Below are positions 1-44,461 of a stretch of 64,000 nucleotides of DNA, in pieces (position 1 is the first letter of the stretch; every line of letters begins with the position of its first letter). The translations under genes and the position numbers were made by a program. The notes beneath the pieces are model-generated. The model was given only the letters and a program-made list of their open reading frames with translations. It searched no databases and was not told the origin of the DNA. The stretch is from Escherichia coli (GTDB lineage: Bacteria; Pseudomonadota; Gammaproteobacteria; Enterobacterales; Enterobacteriaceae). The DNA is taken from NCBI RefSeq assembly GCF_046105845.1, contig NZ_CP151004.1, one strand, 5' to 3'.

Positions 1-612
1 GGCGAATTTCCGGCAGCTTATGCGAGATAAAAACAATACCCACGCCAGTAGCAAGCAGCTCCCGCAAGCGACTAAACAAGCGTTCGGTTTCCGCAGGGGT
101 AAGCGAGGCGGTAGGTTCATCGAGGATCAGAATCTGCGAGTCGCGCATCAGCCCACGGAGGATTTCCACCATTTGGCGATCGGCGACATCCAGCGATCCT
201 GCCAGACTATGCAGATCAAACTGGCAGCCCAGCGCCACCAGCAAGTTATTCATTTTCTGTATGGAGAGTTGTTTTTTTGCCAGACCAAACAGGATGTTTT
301 CTTTTATCGACAGGCTTGGAAAAAGCAGCGGTTCCTGGGGAACGAGATAAATGCCCAGCTGATGAGCATGAACTGGCGTTAATCTGGTGTAGTTGTTGCC
401 CCCAATCTCAAGCGTACCGCTATCAGCAGGGGTAATACCGGCAATAATCTTCATTAACGTCGATTTACCGGCACCATTGCCGCCGAGCAGGGCGTGGACC
501 TCCCCCTGGTGCAACGTAAAATCGATGCCTTTCAGGACATTAACCCCTGAATACTGTTTATAAACCGAGCGGGCGCAAAGTAGCGGTAACGCGCGGGTAT
601 CACTCGTTTGCA
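1..612 (-). CDS. lsrA: AI-2 ABC transporter ATP-binding protein LsrA, N-terminal part (continues beyond window start)
   Basis: Minus-strand translation from ATG at 612..610 gives [32 protein letters not shown]...GGNGAGKST (Walker A); divergent from lsrR as in the known lsr locus. The + ORF 20..382 is its antisense shadow. Confidence 0.9.
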
Positions 613-634
613 TATTTCCCCCGTTCAGTTTTGC

Positions 635-667
635 AGGTGAGTTTTGAACAAATGTATTTTTGCTTTT
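635..667. promoter_or_regulatory. Perfect 9-bp inverted repeat TGAACAAAT-N15-ATTTGTTCA in the lsrA/lsrR divergent promoter region; candidate repressor (LsrR) operator
   Basis: Inverted repeat read directly; location between divergent lsrA and lsrR. Assignment to LsrR is inference. Confidence 0.35.
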
Positions 668-777
668 AATTTGTTCATAACCTTAGGCGGGCATTGCATA
701 TATTTCCGACGAATAGATCACAATTTATGCTATTTTGATTTTCACGGTTGCGTTTGTTCATGCTCGTAGAGTCAAAC

Positions 778-793
778 TGTGGTTGCTATCACA
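778..793. promoter_or_regulatory. CRP-like site TGTGG-N6-TCACA in lsr intergenic region
   Basis: Matches CRP consensus TGTGA-N6-TCACA in 4/5 + 5/5 positions; lsr operon is known to be cAMP-CRP dependent. Confidence 0.45.
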
Positions 794-1893: not shown

Positions 1894-3486
1894 ATGGCTC
1901 GACTCTTTACCCCTTCAGAATCAAAGTACTACCTGATGGCGCTGGATGCAGGCACCGGAAGTATTCGGGCTGTGATATTCGACCTGGAAGGCAATCAAAT
2001 AGCAGTGGGACAGGCGGAGTGGCGGCACCTGGCAGTACCGGACGTTCCTGGTTCTATGGAGTTTGATCTCAACAAAAACTGGCAACTGGCGTGTGAGTGT
2101 ATGCGCCAGGCGCTTCACAACGCCGGCATAGCCCCGGAGTATATCGCTGCCGTTTCGGCATGTTCGATGCGCGAAGGCATTGTTTTATATAACAATGAAG
2201 GAACACCGATCTGGGCCTGCGCCAATGTGGATGCCAGAGCGGCGCGCGAAGTTAGCGAACTTAAAGAACTGCACAACAATACCTTTGAAAACGAAGTTTA
2301 TCGCGCCACCGGACAAACGCTGGCTTTAAGCGCTATTCCCAGATTACTTTGGCTGGCGCACCATCGTTCCGATATTTACCGTCAGGCATCAACCATCACC
2401 ATGATCAGCGACTGGCTGGCCTATATGCTCAGCGGCGAACTGGCGGTGGATCCCTCTAACGCTGGCACCACGGGACTTCTTGATCTAACCACCCGTGACT
2501 GGAAACCTGCATTGCTGGATATGGCCGGACTGCGGGCCGATATTCTTTCTCCTGTCAAAGAAACCGGCACATTGCTGGGCGTGGTAAGTTCACAAGCGGC
2601 GGAACTCTGCGGTCTGAAGGCGGGCACTCCGGTGGTCGTTGGAGGAGGCGACGTGCAACTTGGTTGCCTGGGGTTAGGCGTTGTGCGTCCGGCACAAACC
2701 GCTGTTCTTGGCGGCACATTCTGGCAGCAAGTTGTAAACTTAGCCGCGCCGGTGACAGACCCAGAAATGAACGTGCGCGTTAATCCTCATGTTATTCCTG
2801 GCATGGTACAAGCTGAATCTATAAGCTTTTTTACCGGACTCACCATGCGCTGGTTCCGCGATGCTTTCTGTGCCGAAGAAAAACTGATTGCCGAACGTTT
2901 AGGCATCGACACCTATACGCTGCTGGAAGAGATGGCAAGTCGGGTGCCGCCTGGGTCGTGGGGCGTAATGCCGATATTCTCCGACAGAATGCGCTTTAAA
3001 ACCTGGTATCACGCTGCGCCTTCCTTTATTAATTTGTCTATTGATCCGGATAAATGTAACAAAGCGACGTTGTTCCGTGCGCTGGAAGAAAATGCGGCGA
3101 TTGTATCAGCGTGTAACTTGCAGCAAATCGCTGATTTCTCGAATATTCATCCTTCATCGTTAGTCTTTGCAGGCGGAGGTTCAAAAGGGAAATTATGGAG
3201 TCAAATTCTCGCTGATGTCTCGGGATTACCCGTCAATATTCCAGTGGTCAAAGAAGCCACCGCATTAGGATGTGCCATTGCAGCTGGCGTCGGTGCCGGA
3301 ATTTTTTCATCAATGGCAGAAACCGGAGAACGCCTGGTTCGCTGGGAACGGACGCACACACCAGACCCGGAAAAGCATGAACTTTATCAGGATTCACGCG
3401 ATAAGTGGCAGGCAGTTTATCAGGATCAGCTGGGGCTGGTTGATCACGGGCTGACGACGTCGTTATGGAAAGCGCCTGGGTTATAG
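1894..3486 (+). CDS. lsrK: autoinducer-2 kinase LsrK (FGGY carbohydrate kinase family)
   Basis: 530-aa [33 protein letters not shown]...; matches K-12 LsrK; directly downstream of lsrR. Confidence 0.95.
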
Positions 3487-3531: not shown

Positions 3532-4009
3532 AGTATTCTTATTTCCCTTCTTTTAGATCTGGTTTGTTAAATGCCAGCTTGCAGATTCATCGTTCCATCG
3601 CCAGTAATATATTCAAGGGGAAATTGCTATTTTTCTTAAAATATTAAGCATAACCCTTATTTTATAGCGAATATTCCTAAAGACATAAATGAATGAAAAA
3701 GAGTTTTAATAGAGTTCTTTTTTAGCAATTAATGCTATTCTTTGTTAAATATGATGATGGTAATTTTCTTATTGAAAGAAACATTTTTCTTATTAAGCAA
3801 CAATAACTCATGGTTCATTTTTAAATAAAATAAGAACTATGCAATTTTTAATCTATCAATTCGAAAGTATTAGCAAATGAGCCAAATTGACACCTTCCCA
3901 CCTCCAACCAACACTCAATACAGACCTCTGACAACTTAATAAGTTTCATTTTTAACGTCTGATGACTCATCTCTTTCGTGGCTGTATTGTTTGTATATGG
4001 AGCGTTTAT

Positions 4010-7000
4010 ATGAATAGAATCTATCGCGTGATATGGAATTGCACCCTACAGGTATTTCAGGCCTGCTCGGAATTAACTCGCAGGGTAGGTAAAACATCAA
4101 CGGTTAATTTGCGTAAATCCTCTGGACTGACAACGAAATTCAGTAGATTGACGCTGGGTGTTTTGCTGGCACTAAGCGGTTCAGCGTCTGGTGCGAGTCT
4201 GGAAGTTGATAATGATCAGATTATCAATATTGATACTGATGTTGCTTATGATGCCTACCTGGTTGGGTGGTATGGCACTGGAGTGCTTAATATTTTGGCT
4301 GGCGGTAATGCCTCCTTAACCACTATTACTACCAGCGTCATTGGTGGTAATGAGAACTCGAAGGGCACCGTTAATGTTTTGGGTGGCACCTGGCGATTGT
4401 ATGATAGCGGAAATAATGCAAGGCCTTTAAATGTGGGCCAATCCGGAACGGGGATGCTGAATATTAAACAGAAGGGGCACGTTGACGGAGGCTATTTAAG
4501 ATTAGGTACTCAAGCTGTAGGCGTCGGGATGGTTAATGTTGAGGGAGAGGACTCGGTTCTGACGACCGAATTATTCGAAATAGGGAGTTACGGTACAGGC
4601 TCATTAAATATTACGGATAAGGGTTACGTCACGAGTTCAATCGTCGCCATTGTAGGATATCAGGCGAACAGCACTGGTAAGGTTGTCGTTGAAAAGGGTG
4701 GCGAGTGGCTAATAAAAAATAATGATTCCTCAATTGAATTTCAAATTGGTAATCAAGGAACTGGGGAGGCGACTATTCGCGAGGGTGGACTGATTACGGC
4801 TGAAAATACGATTATCGGTGGCAATGCCACCGGTATCGGAACCCTGAATGTGCAGGATCAAGACTCTGTCATCACGGTACGCAGAGTCTATAATGGATAT
4901 TTCGGTAATGGCACAGTCAATATTTCCAATAATGGACTGATTAATAATAAAGAATATTCATTGGTGGGCGTTCAGGACGGGTCCCACGGTGTCGTCAACG
5001 TGACCAATAAAGGGCATTGGAATTTCCTCGGAACGGGCGAAGCTTTCCGCTATATCTATATCGGTGATGCTGGCGACGGTGAACTTAATGTCTCTAGTGA
5101 AGGCAAAGTAGATTCGGGAATTATCACTGCGGGGATGAAAGAAACAGGCACAGGCAACATTACTATTAAGGATAAGAACTCCATTATCACTAATCTCGGA
5201 ACTAATCTTGGTTATGACGGCCACGGCGAAATGAATATCAGTAATGAGGGGCTTGTTATCAGCAACGGAGGAAGCTCACTCGGTTATGGAGAAACCGGCG
5301 TCGGGAAGGTTAGCATCACCACGGGGGGGATGTGGGAGGTCAATAAGAATGTCTATACCACCATTGGTGTTGCGGGCGTCGGAAACCTCAATATCAGCGA
5401 TGGCGGTAAGTTCGTATCGCAAAATATTACTTTTTTGGGCGATAAAGCAAGCGGTATCGGCACACTGAACCTGATGGATGCGACATCATCGTTCGATACT
5501 GTAGGTATCAATGTCGGTAATTTTGGTAGCGGCATCGTAAATGTCAGTAATGGTGCCACCCTTAATTCAACGGGCTATGGATTTATCGGAGGAAATGCCT
5601 CCGGTAAGGGGATAGTTAATATTTCAACGGATAGTCTCTGGAATTTAAAAACGTCATCTACTAACGCCCAATTGTTACAGGTCGGTGTATTAGGCACGGG
5701 TGAACTGAATATTAGCACCGGAGGTATAGTTAAAGCGCGTGATACACAAATAGCTCTCAATGACAAAAGTAAGGGCGACGTGCGGGTGGATGGGCAGAAC
5801 TCTCTTCTTGAAACATTCAATATGAACGTAGGGACGACTGGCACAGGTACGTTAACCCTGACGAATAACGGTACGCTGAATGTCGAAGGTGGAGAAGTTT
5901 ACTTAGGTGTTTTTGCGCCTGCTGTAGGAACGCTAAACATTGGTGCTGCTCACGGTGAGGCGGCGGCAGATGCCGGATTTATCACCAATGCGACGAAAGT
6001 GGAGTTTGGTCTTGGCGAAGGCGTTTTTGTCTTTAATCATACCAATAACAGTGATGCCGGCTACCAGGTCGATATGCTGATTACGGGTGACGATAAAGAC
6101 GGAAAAGTGATGCATGATGCAGGCCATACGGTGTTCAATGCAGGGAATACTTATAGCGGTAAAACGTTGGTCAATGGCGGCCTCCTGACCATTGCGTCAC
6201 ATACGGCAGATGGGGTAACGGGCATGGGTTCGAGTGAAGTAACCATTGCAAACCCCGGTACGCTCGACATTCTCGCATCAACGAACAGTGCAGGAGATTA
6301 CACGCTGACCAATGCGCTCAAAGGCGATGGCTTGATGCGAGTGCAGCTGTCATCCTCCGACAAAATGTTTGGCTTTACCCATGCAACAGGAACTGAATTC
6401 GCCGGTGTTGCCCAACTGAAAGACAGTACCTTCACACTGGAACGCGACAACACCGCTGCGCTTACTCACGCGATGCTTCAGTCTGACAGTGAAAATACCA
6501 CATCGGTAAAAGTGGGAGAGCAATCCATTGGTGGACTAGCCATGAATGGCGGTACGCTCACTTTCGATACGGATATACCTGCTGCGACGCTCGCGGAGGG
6601 ATATATCAGCGTCGATACGCTGGTTGTCGGCGCGGGTGACTACACCTGGAAAGGCCGTAACTATCAGGTAAACGGGACGGGCGACGTGCTTATCGACGTG
6701 CCTAAACCGTGGAATGATCCCATGGCGAATAACCCTCTGACGACGCTCAATTTGCTGGAACACGATGATAGTCATGTCGGCGTTCAACTGGTGAAGGCGC
6801 AAACGGTTATTGGGTCGGGTGGCTCATTAACGTTACGTGATTTACAGGGCGACGAGGTGGAAGCGGACAAAACGTTACATATTGCACAAAACGGGACAGT
6901 GGTCGCCGAGGGTGATTATGGATTCCGCCTCACGACCGCTCCTGGTGATGGTTTGTATGTTAACTATGGGCTGAAAGCGCTGAACATCCATGGTGGGCAA

Positions 7001-9430
7001 AAGCTGACGTTAGCCGAACATGGCGGAGCCTATGGCGCAACGGCCGATATGTCGGCAAAAATCGGTGGTGAAGGGGATCTGGCAATCAATACGGTGCGAC
7101 AGGTTTCGCTTTCTAACGGTCAGAACGACTATCAGGGGGCAACCTACGTTCAGATGGGGACATTACGTACCGATGCGGATGGCGCTCTGGGCAATACTCG
7201 GGAACTGAACATCAGCAACGCGGCCATCGTCGATCTTAATGGATCGGAGCAGACGGTAGAGACATTCACCGGGCTGATGGGTTCGACTATTTTGTTCAAA
7301 GAAGGTTCGCTGACGGTGAATAAAGGTGGGATCAGTCAGGGCGAACTGACAGGTGGCGGAAACCTGAATGTTACAGGGGGAACACTGGCTATCGAGGGGC
7401 TTAATGCACGCTACAATGCGTTAACCAGCATTAGCCCAAATGCGGAAGTCAGCCTCGACAATACGCAGGGGTTAGGCAGAGGAAATATTGCCAATGACGG
7501 TCTGTTAACGCTAAAAAACGTGACCGGCAAACTGCGCAATAGCATAAGCGGTAAAGGTATCGTGAGCGCAACCGCCAGCACAGACGTAGAGCTGGATGGC
7601 GATAATAGCCGCTTTGTGGGGCAATTCAACATCGATGCAGGCAGCGCGCTCAGCGTCAACGAGCAGAAAAACCTGGGTGATGCTTCCGTTATCAATAATG
7701 GCCTGCTCACCATCGCCACTGAGCGTAGCTGGGCGATGACGCACAGTATCACCGGTAGCGGCGATGTGACAAAACTGGGGACCGGGATCCTGACTCTTAA
7801 CAACGATTCCGCGGCGTATCAGGGTACGACGGATATCGTGGGTGGTGAAATTGCTTTCGGTTCCGACTCTGCCATTAATATGGCAAGTCAGCACATTAAT
7901 ATCCATAACAGCGGTGTGATGTCGGGAAATGTCACCACTGCAGGTGATGTGAACGTTATGCCAGGGGGGACACTGCGTGTCGCTAAAACCACTGTCGGCG
8001 GTAACCTGGAGAATGGTGGCACGGTTCAAATGAACAGCGAAGGGGGGAAACCGGGGAATGTACTGACCGTTAACGGCAACTATACCGGAAACAATGGCCT
8101 GATGACGTTCAACGCGACGCTGGGTGGCGATAATTCGCCCACGGATAAAATGAACGTGAAAGGCGATACCCAAGGGAATACTCGCGTTCGGGTTGATAAC
8201 ATTGGCGGCGTCGGTGCACAAACGGTCAACGGTATTGAACTCATTGAGGTTGGCGGTAATTCTGCAGGTAAATTCGCGCTGACCACCGGAACTGTCGAAG
8301 CTGGGGCTTACGTCTACACGCTGGCTAAAGGGAAGGGGAATGACGAGAAAAACTGGTATCTGACCAGTAAATGGGACGGCGTAACGCCAGCGGATACACC
8401 CGATCCCATCAATAATCCCCCTGTTGTGGATCCGGAAGGCCCATCAGTTTATCGCCCGGAGGCCGGAAGCTATATCAGCAACATTGCCGCAGCCAACTCG
8501 CTGTTTAGCCATCGCTTACACGACCGTCTGGGTGAGCCGCAGTATACAGATTCACTGCATTCTCAGGGTTCGGCAAGCAGTATGTGGATGCGTCATGTCG
8601 GGGGGCACGAACGTTTCAGGACCGGTGACGGCCAGCTAAATATTCAGGCTAACCGCTATGTATTGCAGCTAGGAGGCGATTTGGCGCAGTGGAGTAGCAA
8701 CGCGCAGGATCGCTGGCATCTCGGCATCATGGCAGGCTATGCCAATCAGCACAGTAATACTCAGAGTAATCATGTGGGTTATAAATCGGATGGGCGCATC
8801 AGCGGTTACAGCGCAGGACTGTACGCGACCTGGTATCAGAACGATGCGAATAAGACCGGCGCTTATGTTGACAGCTGGGCGCTGTATAACTGGTTTGATA
8901 ACAGCGTCAGTTCCGATAACCGTTCTGCTGACGACTATGATTCTCGCGGTGTGACGGCCTCTGTTGAGGGGGGGTATACCTTTGAAGCGGGAACATTTAG
9001 CGGCAGCGAAGGGACGCTGAATACCTGGTACGTCCAGCCACAGGTACAAATCACCTGGATGGGTGTGAAAGATTCTGACCATACCCGGAAAGACGGAACA
9101 CGCATTGAAACGGAAGGCGACGGAAACGTGCAAACGCGACTTGGGGTGAAAACCTACCTGAACAGCCATCACCAGCGTGACGATGGTAAACAGCGTGAGT
9201 TCCAGCCTTACATTGAAGCGAACTGGATCAACAACAGCAAAGTCTACGCCGTGAAGATGAATGGTCAAACCGTAAGCCGTGATGGTGCGCGTAATCTCGG
9301 TGAAGTACGTACCGGGGTTGAGGCGAAAGTAAATAACAACCTTAGCCTGTGGGGGAATGTCGGTGTGCAACTAGGTGATAAAGGCTATAGCGATACTCAG
9401 GGCATGCTGGGAGTGAAATATATCTGGTAA
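4010..9430 (+). CDS. ydeK: Large type Va autotransporter adhesin (full length, 1806 aa) with extended signal peptide region, repetitive beta-helix passenger and C-terminal beta-barrel
   Basis: Start at MNRIYRVIWNCTLQVF (ESPR-like) with GGAG RBS 7 nt upstream; many GTGxLNI/GNASG passenger repeats; C-terminus ends ...LGVKYIW (aromatic terminal residue). Locus position between lsrK and hipB matches ydeK/yneO, which I recall as a pseudogene in K-12. Confidence 0.85.
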   Translation: MNRIYRVIWNCTLQVFQACSELTRRVGKTSTVNLRKSSGLTTKFSRLTLGVLLALSGSASGASLEVDNDQIINIDTDVAYDAYLVGWYGTGVLNILAGGNASLTTITTSVIGGNENSKGTVNVLGGTWRLYDSGNNARPLNVGQSGTGMLNIKQKGHVDGGYLRLGTQAVGVGMVNVEGEDSVLTTELFEIGSYGTGSLNITDKGYVTSSIVAIVGYQANSTGKVVVEKGGEWLIKNNDSSIEFQIGNQGTGEATIREGGLITAENTIIGGNATGIGTLNVQDQDSVITVRRVYNGYFGNGTVNISNNGLINNKEYSLVGVQDGSHGVVNVTNKGHWNFLGTGEAFRYIYIGDAGDGELNVSSEGKVDSGIITAGMKETGTGNITIKDKNSIITNLGTNLGYDGHGEMNISNEGLVISNGGSSLGYGETGVGKVSITTGGMWEVNKNVYTTIGVAGVGNLNISDGGKFVSQNITFLGDKASGIGTLNLMDATSSFDTVGINVGNFGSGIVNVSNGATLNSTGYGFIGGNASGKGIVNISTDSLWNLKTSSTNAQLLQVGVLGTGELNISTGGIVKARDTQIALNDKSKGDVRVDGQNSLLETFNMNVGTTGTGTLTLTNNGTLNVEGGEVYLGVFAPAVGTLNIGAAHGEAAADAGFITNATKVEFGLGEGVFVFNHTNNSDAGYQVDMLITGDDKDGKVMHDAGHTVFNAGNTYSGKTLVNGGLLTIASHTADGVTGMGSSEVTIANPGTLDILASTNSAGDYTLTNALKGDGLMRVQLSSSDKMFGFTHATGTEFAGVAQLKDSTFTLERDNTAALTHAMLQSDSENTTSVKVGEQSIGGLAMNGGTLTFDTDIPAATLAEGYISVDTLVVGAGDYTWKGRNYQVNGTGDVLIDVPKPWNDPMANNPLTTLNLLEHDDSHVGVQLVKAQTVIGSGGSLTLRDLQGDEVEADKTLHIAQNGTVVAEGDYGFRLTTAPGDGLYVNYGLKALNIHGGQKLTLAEHGGAYGATADMSAKIGGEGDLAINTVRQVSLSNGQNDYQGATYVQMGTLRTDADGALGNTRELNISNAAIVDLNGSEQTVETFTGLMGSTILFKEGSLTVNKGGISQGELTGGGNLNVTGGTLAIEGLNARYNALTSISPNAEVSLDNTQGLGRGNIANDGLLTLKNVTGKLRNSISGKGIVSATASTDVELDGDNSRFVGQFNIDAGSALSVNEQKNLGDASVINNGLLTIATERSWAMTHSITGSGDVTKLGTGILTLNNDSAAYQGTTDIVGGEIAFGSDSAINMASQHINIHNSGVMSGNVTTAGDVNVMPGGTLRVAKTTVGGNLENGGTVQMNSEGGKPGNVLTVNGNYTGNNGLMTFNATLGGDNSPTDKMNVKGDTQGNTRVRVDNIGGVGAQTVNGIELIEVGGNSAGKFALTTGTVEAGAYVYTLAKGKGNDEKNWYLTSKWDGVTPADTPDPINNPPVVDPEGPSVYRPEAGSYISNIAAANSLFSHRLHDRLGEPQYTDSLHSQGSASSMWMRHVGGHERFRTGDGQLNIQANRYVLQLGGDLAQWSSNAQDRWHLGIMAGYANQHSNTQSNHVGYKSDGRISGYSAGLYATWYQNDANKTGAYVDSWALYNWFDNSVSSDNRSADDYDSRGVTASVEGGYTFEAGTFSGSEGTLNTWYVQPQVQITWMGVKDSDHTRKDGTRIETEGDGNVQTRLGVKTYLNSHHQRDDGKQREFQPYIEANWINNSKVYAVKMNGQTVSRDGARNLGEVRTGVEAKVNNNLSLWGNVGVQLGDKGYSDTQGMLGVKYIW

Positions 9431-11765: not shown

Positions 11766-12199
11766 TAAACCCTGCACTTATCTGTTTAGAGCAATTCCGT
11801 GTTAGTTACACCAGTCAAACATTAACCATAGCTAATGTTTTATAGCCATATAAACCATTGGCCGCTCTTGACCTTTCCTGACACTTCCCTTGTTCGCAAT
11901 AATATTCTGTTTAGTCGCTGTTTATAAATAACATGCATAATGAAATCGTAATGTTATTTAGCGACATAAAATGTCTTTGCAAATACTCTCTACAACAAGT
12001 GCTGCAATAAACTTGTTGTGATTAGGTGTCCTTGTAATTTAAAGATATTATCGTTCTTCGTGAAATGTAATAACCCTGGAAACTATATTCTCAGGGCAAT
12101 ATCCCATCAAGAATGATTCTTGTTTTATAAGCAATAACAGAATTACTTAATTGTTAACTTTCTTTATTCAGCTACTTAAATATAAATTTTGGAGAATTA

Positions 12200-22531: not shown

Positions 22532-22854
22532 TTAGGCGATATATTTATTGAAATAAATAAGTGACATTCATCACATATTTATGCATTTGCATAACCCGTT
22601 GCATGATTATTTATGATCTCAATTCGGCATTTTGTCAGTAAAATACAATAATTTATTAAATATCAATAGATTAGTTGTTTATCATCGAGAAATTACTTAG
22701 TAGAACAGAAAGTAATGTCAACGCTTTATGGACTGTTATTTCCCTTTTTTTAGCTAAATCTGCTATCTCTTTATGTGACTAACTTCACTTACATTCACTT
22801 ATTTCTCTTCGTAAAATTACTTTGGAATTAAGTACAATAAGAAGAGGAACATTT

Positions 22855-32972: not shown

Positions 32973-33234
32973 TAACAGCCCCGTCAACACCTCGTTGGCG
33001 GGGATTTTAGCAATATTCGCTATTTTTATGTAATAATTTTATAAATGCGTTCAAAATAATAACCAAGTACTAATAGTGATATTTTAAGGTCTGATTTTTA
33101 CGTGATAATTCAGGAGGCGTAGAAAGTGCATAAAAATAACAGCATAAAACACCTTGCCATCACCCAAGAATTCAATAATGTATTGATTTTCAATGATAAA
33201 ATATTATTCGCATAATATCTCACGATAAATAACA

Positions 33235-33254
33235 TTAGGATTTTGTTATTTAAA
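33235..33254 (+). promoter_or_regulatory. GAD box (GadE binding site) TTAGGATTTTGTTATTTAAA in gadB promoter
   Basis: Exact 20-bp GAD box sequence as remembered for gadA/gadBC promoters, about 80 bp upstream of the gadB ATG. Confidence 0.8.
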
Positions 33255-42910: not shown

Positions 42911-44461
42911 ATGAAGAGATCGATATCGTTTCGTCCTACATTGCTCGCGATCGTCCTTGCCACAACAATGCCGGTTGCGCACGCCGCCGTACCGAAAGAT
43001 ATGCTGGTGATCGGTAAAGCTGCCGACCCACAAACCCTCGACCCAGCGGTGACAATTGATAATAACGACTGGACAGTGACCTACCCGTCTTATCAGCGAC
43101 TGGTTCAGTACAAAACGGACGGTGATAAAGGCTCAACCGACGTTGAAGGCGATCTGGCGAGTAGCTGGAAAGCGTCTGACGATCAAAAAGAGTGGACGTT
43201 CACCCTGAAGGACAATGCTAAATTTGCCGATGGCACACCTGTCACTGCCGAAGCAGTAAAACTCTCTTTTGAGCGGTTACTAAAAATCGGCCAGGGGCCA
43301 GCAGAAGCATTTCCCAAAGATTTAAAGATTGATGCTCCCGACGAACATACGGTGAAGTTTACCCTTAGCCAACCATTCGCACCGTTCCTCTACACGCTGG
43401 CGAATGACGGTGCATCCATTATCAATCCGGCGGTCTTAAAGGAACATGCAGCGGATGATGCCCGTGGTTTCCTCGCGCAAAATACCGCTGGCTCCGGACC
43501 GTTTATGCTGAAAAGCTGGCAAAAAGGTCAGCAATTAGTTCTGGTGCCAAATCCGCATTACCCCGGTAATAAACCGAATTTCAAACGGGTATCGGTAAAA
43601 ATTATCGGTGAAAGTGCTTCCCGTCGCCTGCAGCTCTCCCGTGGCGACATTGACATTGCCGATGCGCTGCCGGTGGATCAACTCAACGCACTGAAGCAGG
43701 AAAACAAAGTCAATGTGGCAGAGTATCCGTCACTGCGCGTCACCTATCTGTATCTGAATAACAGCAAAGCGCCACTTAATCAGGCGGATCTGCGTCGGGC
43801 CATTTCCTGGTCTACCGATTATCAGGGTATGGTTAACGGCATTCTGAGTGGTAACGGAAAACAAATGCGCGGCCCGATTCCGGAAGGCATGTGGGGATAC
43901 GATGCGACGGCAATGCAATACAACCATGACGAAACGAAAGCCAAAGCCGAATGGGATAAAGTGACGAGCAAACCCACCAGCCTGACGTTTCTCTATTCTG
44001 ATAATGATCCGAACTGGGAGCCTATTGCTCTGGCGACACAATCCAGTCTCAACAAGCTGGGCATCAATGTGAAGCTGGAAAAGCTGGCGAACGCCACCAT
44101 GCGCGACAGAGTGGGTAAAGGTGATTACGACATTGCGATTGGCAACTGGAGCCCGGATTTTGCCGACCCGTATATGTTTATGAATTACTGGTTTGAGTCA
44201 GACAAAAAAGGTCTGCCGGGTAACCGCTCGTTCTATGAAAACAGTGAGGTCGATAAGCTACTGCGCAATGCGCTAGCGACCACCGACCAGACGCAGCGTA
44301 CCCGGGACTACCAGCAGGCACAGAAAATCGTCATTGATGACGCTGCTTATGTGTACCTGTTCCAGAAAAACTACCAACTGGCGATGAACAAAGAGGTGAA
44401 AGGTTTTGTGTTCAATCCCATGCTGGAACAGGTCTTCAATATCAATACCATGAGTAAATAA
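42911..44461 (+). CDS. ddpA: Dipeptide ABC transporter periplasmic binding protein
   Basis: 516-aa product with signal peptide MKRSISFRPTLLAIVLATTMPVAHA; SBP family 5. Confidence 0.9.
   Translation: MKRSISFRPTLLAIVLATTMPVAHAAVPKDMLVIGKAADPQTLDPAVTIDNNDWTVTYPSYQRLVQYKTDGDKGSTDVEGDLASSWKASDDQKEWTFTLKDNAKFADGTPVTAEAVKLSFERLLKIGQGPAEAFPKDLKIDAPDEHTVKFTLSQPFAPFLYTLANDGASIINPAVLKEHAADDARGFLAQNTAGSGPFMLKSWQKGQQLVLVPNPHYPGNKPNFKRVSVKIIGESASRRLQLSRGDIDIADALPVDQLNALKQENKVNVAEYPSLRVTYLYLNNSKAPLNQADLRRAISWSTDYQGMVNGILSGNGKQMRGPIPEGMWGYDATAMQYNHDETKAKAEWDKVTSKPTSLTFLYSDNDPNWEPIALATQSSLNKLGINVKLEKLANATMRDRVGKGDYDIAIGNWSPDFADPYMFMNYWFESDKKGLPGNRSFYENSEVDKLLRNALATTDQTQRTRDYQQAQKIVIDDAAYVYLFQKNYQLAMNKEVKGFVFNPMLEQVFNINTMSK

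Follow-up and report, generated by a model that had tools for sequence, protein, structure and literature searches.

LsrR boxes and CRP sites in the control region between lsrA and lsrR of Escherichia coli: a comparative refinement of known regulation

INTRODUCTION

Repression of the AI-2 uptake operon by LsrR and its activation by CRP have been known since 2005–2009, and the lsr promoter is already in use as a synthetic-biology part. CRP sites I and II of the lsr region were reportedly described by Wang et al. in 2005 and by Xavier and Bassler in 2005, and Xue et al. in 2009 (Cell Res 19:1258) are said to have footprinted LsrR on an lsrA-box and an lsrR-box.

Hauk et al. 2016 (PMC5137460) describe LsrR as a repressor of the operon and of its own expression that acts via two boxes in the lsr promoter region, and they cite the Xue 2009 footprints for this. 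The p-lsrR-box was placed between −237 and −197 relative to the lsrA ATG, and two sequences within it, AACAAT and AAGATTTAA, were found to be needed for LsrR binding (PMC5137460). The emphasis of this LsrR literature is on these internal 6-bp and 9-bp sequences, not on an outer TGAACA/TGTTCA palindrome (PMC5137460). Binding of LsrR to both lsrA and lsrR promoter DNA was reported in J Bacteriol 2026 (PMC13393413), the lsrR promoter serving as the positive control in the LsrR EMSA, and recent LsrR papers, that one included, present quite dissimilar 'motifs' at other promoters. Deletion of crp abolishes lsr expression (10.64898/2026.06.09.730415).

Two other described systems are relevant to the layout of this region. 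The first is DeoR of Bacillus subtilis, whose operator, ATTGAACAAAATTTCAATTACCAATTTACATATGTTCAA (ATTGAACA...TGTTCAA), is bound by one tetramer. The tetramer is a dimer of dimers, and the sites touched by its two DNA-binding domains are separated by about one turn; the half-operators alone are not bound and binding to the operator is non-cooperative (PMC11229326). The second is the family of class II CRP promoters such as galP1, in which CRP is centred at −41.5, along with other divergent regions under CRP control.

Here we describe the control region between lsrA and lsrR in a 64,000-nucleotide stretch of E. coli DNA, referred to below as the window; all coordinates are those of the window. 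A preliminary description of this DNA had proposed that a perfect inverted repeat and a CRP-like motif in the lsrA–lsrR divergent promoter are the repressor operator and the activator site of the divergent AI-2 uptake operon. The control region has already been characterised, and the palindrome and CRP motif found in the window are a rediscovery of it. The comparative data add modest refinements, namely a near-invariant 21-bp spacer within the LsrR box, a three-box layout of which the middle box has decayed in E. coli, and a constant distance of 34.5 bp between CRP and −10-like hexamer.

RESULTS

The lsr locus

The window opens within the 5′ part of lsrA (1–613, minus strand, ATG at 613), which encodes the ATPase of the AI-2 ABC transporter and carries a Pfam ABC ATPase match. 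On the plus strand lsrR (862–1815) encodes a SorC-family repressor, in which a helix-turn-helix at the N terminus is combined with a sugar-binding domain (PF04198, covering residues 67–316). Next comes lsrK (1894–3486, plus strand; Pfam FGGY kinase domains), whose product, the AI-2 kinase, generates the inducer phospho-AI-2. Many complete E. coli chromosomes match the first 4 kb of the window at 99% identity and have the genes under the same names, and the segment was found in 4,281 of 5,426 genomes. In an annotated neighbour genome the left side of the locus continues as lsrACDBFG-tam, and an autotransporter gene and hipBA lie to the right.

The stretch that separates lsrA from lsrR comprises 248 bp, 614–861. 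When 590–880 was aligned to K-12 MG1655 the identity was 98%, with six SNPs, at 660, 688, 691, 699, 787 and 804, none of which falls in an LsrR half-site or a CRP core. The region 614–861 is very probably the shared control region of the divergent lsrACDBFG and lsrRK operons, with LsrR operators and CRP sites.

The inverted repeat forms the outer part of a 33-bp box

The arms described in the preliminary description, TGAACAAAT (645–653) and ATTTGTTCA (669–677), are indeed complementary and form a perfect 9-bp inverted repeat around a 15-nt A/T-rich spacer. The repeat grows to 13 nt if one mismatch is allowed (641–653 with 669–681), and its exact pattern occurs once in the 64-kb window and in none of 100 shuffles. 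The CRP-like TGTGG-N6-TCACA site is likewise present, at 778–793, one mismatch from TGTGA-N6-TCACA. The separation given for the two, about 110 bp, was a fair figure as the CRP site starts 101 bp past the end of the palindrome and lies 124.5 bp from it centre to centre.

Taken singly, neither motif is significant. Perfect 9-mer inverted pairs with spacers of up to 20 nt are common in the window, 41 being present at about 20 places compared to about 6 pairs per shuffle, and CRP cores with no more than one mismatch are found at the chance rate (3 in 64 kb, with 2.0 expected). These counts are what would be seen if the palindrome and the CRP-like motif were both chance matches in an A/T-rich intergenic region. 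The palindrome nevertheless rises above chance because the 33-bp geometry to which it belongs is repeated in the same intergenic region, and because the positions are fixed across genera as described below.

The 33-bp unit is TGAACAAATGTATTTTTGCTTTTAATTTGTTCA (645–677; −32 to −64 relative to the lsrA ATG), which reads TGAACA-N21-TGTTCA and will be called box A, the lsrA-proximal operator. A search for TGAACA-N10-30-TGTTCA gave three matches in 64 kb against 0.13 expected, and two of the three fall between lsrA and lsrR, both with a spacer of N21. The second of these, box R, is the lsrR-proximal operator TGAACAATTGCATTAAAGATTTAAATATGTTCA (813–845), and has the same geometry as box A. Between them lies a decayed middle box, TGCTATTTTGATTTTCACGGTTGCGTTTGTTCA (728–760), its start lying 83 bp beyond that of box A and 85 bp ahead of that of box R. 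Its right half-site, TGTTCA at 755–760, is perfect and its left half has four mismatches, the left hexamer being TGCTAT. Retention of the right half-site explains why TTTGTTCAT is found twice, at 670–678 and again at 753–761.

The functional operator thus appears to be the 33-bp box TGAACA-N21-TGTTCA, with the palindrome as its outer part. The proposal that the palindrome is an LsrR operator agrees with the published map and with conservation, but the true unit would be this 33-bp box; the conserved part of each arm extends over 6–7 bp only and the 9-bp perfection is specific to Escherichia.

Agreement with published LsrR sites

The published coordinates of the p-lsrR-box correspond to 810–850 of the window, and both AACAAT and AAGATTTAA are inside 813–845. 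In the legend to Figure 2 of Hauk et al. the elements are listed, from lsrR to lsrA, as p-lsrR-box, CRPII, CRPI and p-lsrA-box (PMC5137460). This order agrees with the window, where box R (813–845), CRPII (778–793), CRPI (707–722) and box A (645–677) follow one another. The order in the legend, together with the comparative data, suggests that 645–677 is the footprinted lsrA-box. Comparison with published LsrR sites, as advised in the preliminary description, places LsrR at both promoters according to the literature, with no footprint moving it elsewhere in the intergenic region. The copy of the box for which there are published coordinates and mutational data is that at 813–845, outside the segment 635–793 with which the preliminary description dealt.

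A further sequence mapped by these authors can be located in the window. The octamer TGTGCAAT was proposed as a CytR half-site 'very close to CRPI', and up-mutations changed TGTGCAAT to TGTACAAT or TGTGTAA (PMC5137460). The K-12 octamer is the reverse complement of 693–700, 6 bp from the CRP-like core at 707–722; owing to the SNP at 699 this putative half-site reads TATGCAAT here (minus strand).

Conservation of the boxes in Enterobacterales

An alignment of 16 LsrR proteins was used to fetch 80 loci, one genome per species, and the Salmonella locus was added. The survey yielded 69 distinct divergent lsrA–lsrR regions from Enterobacterales, in more than 20 genera. Box A was present beside lsrA in all 69, with no or one mismatch and nearly always with N21. 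Among all boxes with one mismatch at most the spacer was 21 bp, except in the second box of Yersinia and Prodigiosinella where it was 20. The lsr operator is therefore conserved with lsrR and lsrA, at a fixed position, in other genomes.

Further boxes were found at +83 to +86 and/or at +166 to +168 from box A. In a scan of every offset from box A the mean number of mismatches had a background of about 8.7, and it dropped only at +83 (4.9) and at +168 (5.8). The intact three-box layout, with boxes at 0, +83 and +166/167, was seen in Salmonella, Kluyvera, Superficieibacter, Serratia sp. H1w and Entomohabitans, and also in an uncultured Enterobacteriaceae genome. Escherichia, Citrobacter and Izhakiella have boxes at 0 and +168, with the middle box reduced to its right half-site, and Mangrovibacter has the same arrangement with the outer box at +167. 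Only two boxes, at 0 and at +83 to +86, were found in Photorhabdus, Xenorhabdus, Yersinia, Morganella and Prodigiosinella, and only those at 0 and +168 in Pantoea, Rahnella, Ewingella and Hafnia. The lsr literature consulted names neither a third box in the middle nor a fixed spacer of 21 bp.

In an alignment of 11 genera, with a mean identity of 72%, the invariant columns were the LsrR half-sites, the GATCAC of CRPI, the TG..G..TCAC of CRPII, and A680, T684 and A685. Across the 69 loci the spacer sequences diverge while the half-sites, the spacer length and the positions stay conserved. Chance matches would not be kept in this way in more than 20 genera, and a second box of identical geometry in the same region, as well as the published binding and mutational data, also speak against coincidence. 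Conservation across the 69 loci excludes the chance reading, to which we give practically no probability.

The regular placing of the boxes raises another reading, in which LsrR oligomers bridge boxes about 83–84 bp (about 8 helical turns) apart and loop or wrap the DNA with both CRP sites, such that repression of lsrA would need box R and vice versa. The box starts are 83–86 and 166–168 bp apart, close to 8 and 16 helical turns, in all genera despite the divergence of the spacers, and Escherichia and Citrobacter have kept the right half of the middle box. In addition, 12 of 14 clones with promoter up-mutations in the lsrA direction had changes in or near the distant p-lsrR-box (PMC5137460). 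However, the chained geometry of CRP site and −10 hexamer, described below, could by itself fix the spacing of the boxes, and some genera have just two boxes, in differing combinations. The homologue DeoR binds its operator non-cooperatively (PMC11229326), and a limited literature search found no report of LsrR-mediated DNA looping. Bridging of the boxes is thus regarded as possible but doubtful.

Two CRP sites

The lsrR-proximal site, CRPII, is TGTGGTTGCTATCACA (778–793, centre 785.5), the CRP-like motif of the preliminary description. A second and weaker site, the lsrA-proximal CRPI, is CGACGAATAGATCACA (707–722, centre 714.5) and is the CRPI of Hauk et al. One half of CRPI is a perfect TCACA and its four mismatches are all in the other half, placing it below a two-mismatch threshold in E. 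coli. Published FIMO values reflect the same difference: CRPII has p of about 1.5e-6, the strongest E. coli lsr match, and is 178 bp from lsrA, and CRPI has p of about 3.4–3.8e-5 in E. coli and is centred 107 bp from the lsrA start (10.64898/2026.06.09.730415).

Nearly every locus with a box R has a CRP-like core at the CRPII position, with one or two mismatches (three in a few loci), and the distance from CRPII to box R is constant in 37 of 37 loci. At the CRPI position GATCAC (716–721) is invariant in the 11-genus alignment, and Yersinia has a CRP core with two mismatches at the same offset. Yersinia, Xenorhabdus and Photorhabdus, which have neither box R nor CRPII, have kept the CRPI site beside lsrA.

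The preliminary description named its operator and activator sites correctly but overlooked box R, the middle box and CRPI.

Predicted geometry of the two promoters

No consensus sigma-70 promoter or terminator was found in a scan of 560–900, and neither promoter has a recognisable −35 element. The lack of a consensus promoter there is as expected for activator-dependent promoters. On the minus strand a candidate lsrA −10 hexamer, TAAGGT, is located at 680–685, where A680, T684 and A685 are invariant in the 11 genera. The hexamer conforms to TAnnnT, whose three fixed letters occupy the positions of a −10 hexamer that carry most information; E. coli has TAAGGT, Salmonella and Kluyvera have TACCGT, Mangrovibacter has TATGTT and Yersinia has TATCTT. 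The A at +35, part of this hexamer, is present in 69 of 69 loci. On the plus strand the candidate lsrR −10 hexamer is AACAAT at 815–820, within box R. Both hexamers are weak, with 3/6 and 4/6 matches to TATAAT.

The distance from the centre of CRPI to the last T of the lsrA hexamer is 34.5 bp in all 64 loci in which both were detectable, and the two shift in concert in Yersinia (1 bp) and in Prodigiosinella (2 bp). For CRPII, the centre and the T of AACAAT are likewise 34.5 bp apart, in 37 of 37 loci. If each hexamer is taken to end at −7, then the 34.5-bp distance would put both CRP dimers at −41.5, the class II position, with transcription predicted to start near 673 (minus strand) and near 827 (plus strand). 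In terms of the genes these predicted starts are some 60 nt ahead of the lsrA ATG (about 1601430 in K-12) and some 35 nt ahead of the lsrR ATG (about 1601276). We infer that the region consists of two class II promoters, dependent on CRP and placed back to back, with an LsrR box over each. Box A would extend over about −4 to +29 of the lsrA promoter, the predicted start lying inside the right arm of the box, and box R over about −14 to +19 of the lsrR promoter, its −10 hexamer included.

The likeness to class II CRP promoters such as galP1 lies in the 34.5 bp between CRP centre and end of the −10-like hexamer and in the absence of a −35 element. The lsr promoters differ in that their starts are predicted ones, CRPI has just one good half in E. 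coli, and a repressor operator overlaps each core promoter.

This arrangement assigns CRPII, by its placing, to lsrR, and CRPI at 707–722 to lsrA. The operator and activator paired in the preliminary description are both real, but box A and CRPII probably serve opposite promoters. An alternative is that CRPII activates lsrA directly and that the sequence at 707–722 does not function as a CRP site. The far better FIMO match of CRPII (1.5e-6 against 3.4e-5) and the single good half-site of CRPI in E. coli favour this, yet GATCAC of CRPI is invariant and lies exactly 34.5 bp from the lsrA hexamer in 64 of 64 loci, the genera lacking box R and CRPII have retained CRPI, and CRPII would be placed at about −112.5 relative to the predicted lsrA start. 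We consider the alternative unlikely. CRPII may also have a less exclusive role: the contribution of CRPI in E. coli may be small, and lsrA, too, might be activated chiefly from CRPII, about 112 bp upstream of its predicted start.

The promoter geometry also bears on whether the palindrome acts as RNA, that is, as a hairpin in the lsrA leader serving as attenuator, stabiliser or sRNA target, instead of as a DNA operator. In minus-strand RNA of 611–690 the 9 bp can pair as a stem around a 15-nt loop, at a minimum free energy of −12.3 kcal/mol. However, this is not exceptional compared with shuffled sequences (z = −1.26; 25 of 200 shuffles fold as well), and no Rfam family was matched beyond a chance hit (E = 0.92). 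The arms are fixed as TGAACA/TGTTCA across genera with zero compensatory changes, the same box recurs both upstream of the predicted lsrA start and on the lsrR side, and with a start near 673 most of the left strand of the stem would not be transcribed. With a fold no better than that of shuffles, no covariation and no Rfam match, the hairpin was rejected as very improbable.

LsrR and its likeness to DeoR

The LsrR sequence matches solved LsrR structures (4L5I and 4GO1) and also the B. subtilis DeoR structure 8R7Y (E = 1.1e-27). Besides the N-terminal helix-turn-helix and the SorC sugar-binding domain it has a DeoR-like recognition helix, the segment TRLKVSRLL of LsrR aligning with SRPTVSRLL of DeoR such that VSRLL is common to the two. 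The arginines of TRLKVSRLL are invariant in the LsrR alignment.

The operators can be compared on the same basis. Both have outer TGAACA...TGTTCA half-sites, both overlap a promoter, and in both cases the repressor is a tetramer that a phosphosugar effector releases. The outer half-sites are separated by 24 bp in the 39-bp DeoR operator and by 21 bp in the 33-bp LsrR box. In the case of DeoR there is also a clear inner palindrome partner (TTCAA), as well as a direct repeat; in the LsrR box conservation of the inner positions is only weak to moderate and A/T-biased, with a symmetrised consensus of TGAACAATTnTnATTnnnAATnAnAATTGTTCA. DeoR also has a single operator, compared to the two or three of lsr. 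By analogy with DeoR, one LsrR tetramer, as a dimer of dimers, plausibly occupies each 33-bp box, perhaps on four half-sites.

DISCUSSION

The layout deduced from the alignments would operate as follows. CRP, bound at about −41.5 of both promoters, would supply the drive to transcribe lsrA and lsrR. LsrR on boxes A and R would bar RNA polymerase from both; once AI-2 is taken up and phosphorylated, the phospho-AI-2 made by LsrK would release LsrR, a step taken from the literature.

Combining the comparative results with the bridging model, we tentatively suggest that the ancestral enterobacterial lsr region had three LsrR boxes 83–84 bp apart with two interleaved CRP sites, that cooperating tetramers loop or wrap the region such that both promoters switch together, and that the true LsrR element is TGAACA-N21-TGTTCA. 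This combined proposal is possible but doubtful. The comparative additions themselves are modest, being refinements of known regulation and not surprises.

The 33-bp palindrome offers a stricter yardstick for claims of LsrR binding at unrelated promoters with dissimilar 'motifs'. It is absent from the quoted site or motif of the claimed 'global' LsrR targets cysN and cysPUWAM, where the only resemblance is a half-site-like pentamer, TGTTC, in the cysN site. The sharper definition of the operator could also guide the engineering of lsr promoters. Since the operator and the activator site picked out from raw sequence are both genuine, the locus also serves as a positive control for that kind of reading. 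For the biology of the AI-2 response, if the proposal of three cooperating boxes is true, E. coli, having lost the left half of its middle box, may have an AI-2 switch that differs in sharpness or threshold from that of Salmonella.

A decayed third LsrR box between lsrA and lsrR

The lsrA-lsrR intergenic region contains a decayed third LsrR box at 728-760, 83 bp from the lsrA-proximal box A (645-677) and 85 bp from the lsrR-proximal box R (813-845). Its right half-site, TGTTCA at 755-760, is intact and its left half has four mismatches. An intact box is found at the equivalent position in Salmonella, Kluyvera, Superficieibacter, Serratia sp. H1w, Entomohabitans, Yersinia, Photorhabdus and Xenorhabdus. 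The middle box is absent from the divergent lsrA-lsrR regions of Pantoea, Ewingella, Rahnella and Hafnia (loci L038, L041, L066, L069 and L072-L079). A conserved TTTGTTCAA was observed in loci of these four genera at +81 from box A, immediately following the GATCACA of CRPI, the lsrA-proximal CRP site; a half-site of reversed orientation thus occupies the position at which the middle box has its left half elsewhere.

Differences from K-12 in the intergenic region

Six SNPs separate this strain from E. coli K-12 MG1655 in the intergenic region. The SNP at 699 (within 693-700) gives ATTGCATA in this strain versus ATTGCACA in K-12, or TATGCAAT versus TGTGCAAT on the opposite strand. It lies inside the octamer proposed as a CytR half-site by Hauk et al. 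(PMC5137460), 2-3 bp from positions where mutation increased lsr promoter strength in the same study. The other five, at 660, 688, 691, 787 and 804, fall outside every half-site and CRP core.

Motifs at other locations

At cysN and cysPUWAM, recent papers describe footprints of LsrR and give the 'motifs' TCCG/GGAAAA and NNNTTTTNN--NNNTTTTNN. These are unlike the conserved TGAACA-N21-TGTTCA box; a half-site-like TTGTTC is present in the cysN site. Elsewhere in the window, TGAACAAAGAGGTGAAAGGTTTTGTGTTCA at 44385-44414 has the outer half-sites of an LsrR box but an 18-bp spacer, and since real LsrR boxes keep a strict N21 this resemblance probably arose by chance. Another two one-mismatch CRP cores, at 22560-22575 and 22774-22789 (214 bp apart), lie inside a fimbrial usher gene, as judged by correspondence with an annotated neighbour genome, and are consistent with the rate expected by chance. 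The 9-nt arm TAAATAACA pairs with TGTTATTTA as perfect inverted repeats at 11925-11960 (18-nt spacer) and 33226-33252 (9-nt spacer). Both places are A/T-rich, intergenic and unrelated, and the repeats could be sites for a common regulator or could have arisen by chance.

The lsr segment and its neighbourhood

Between lsrK and hipBA lies an intact ORF of 1,822 aa (3962-9430), which is annotated as an 'ECSE_1600 family autotransporter' in a near-identical genome. Its K-12 counterpart (yneO/ydeK) is a pseudogene. The lsrA-lsrR-lsrK segment itself was found in only 4,281 of the 5,426 complete E. coli genomes, and therefore about one fifth of E. coli strains either lack this segment or carry a highly diverged version of it.
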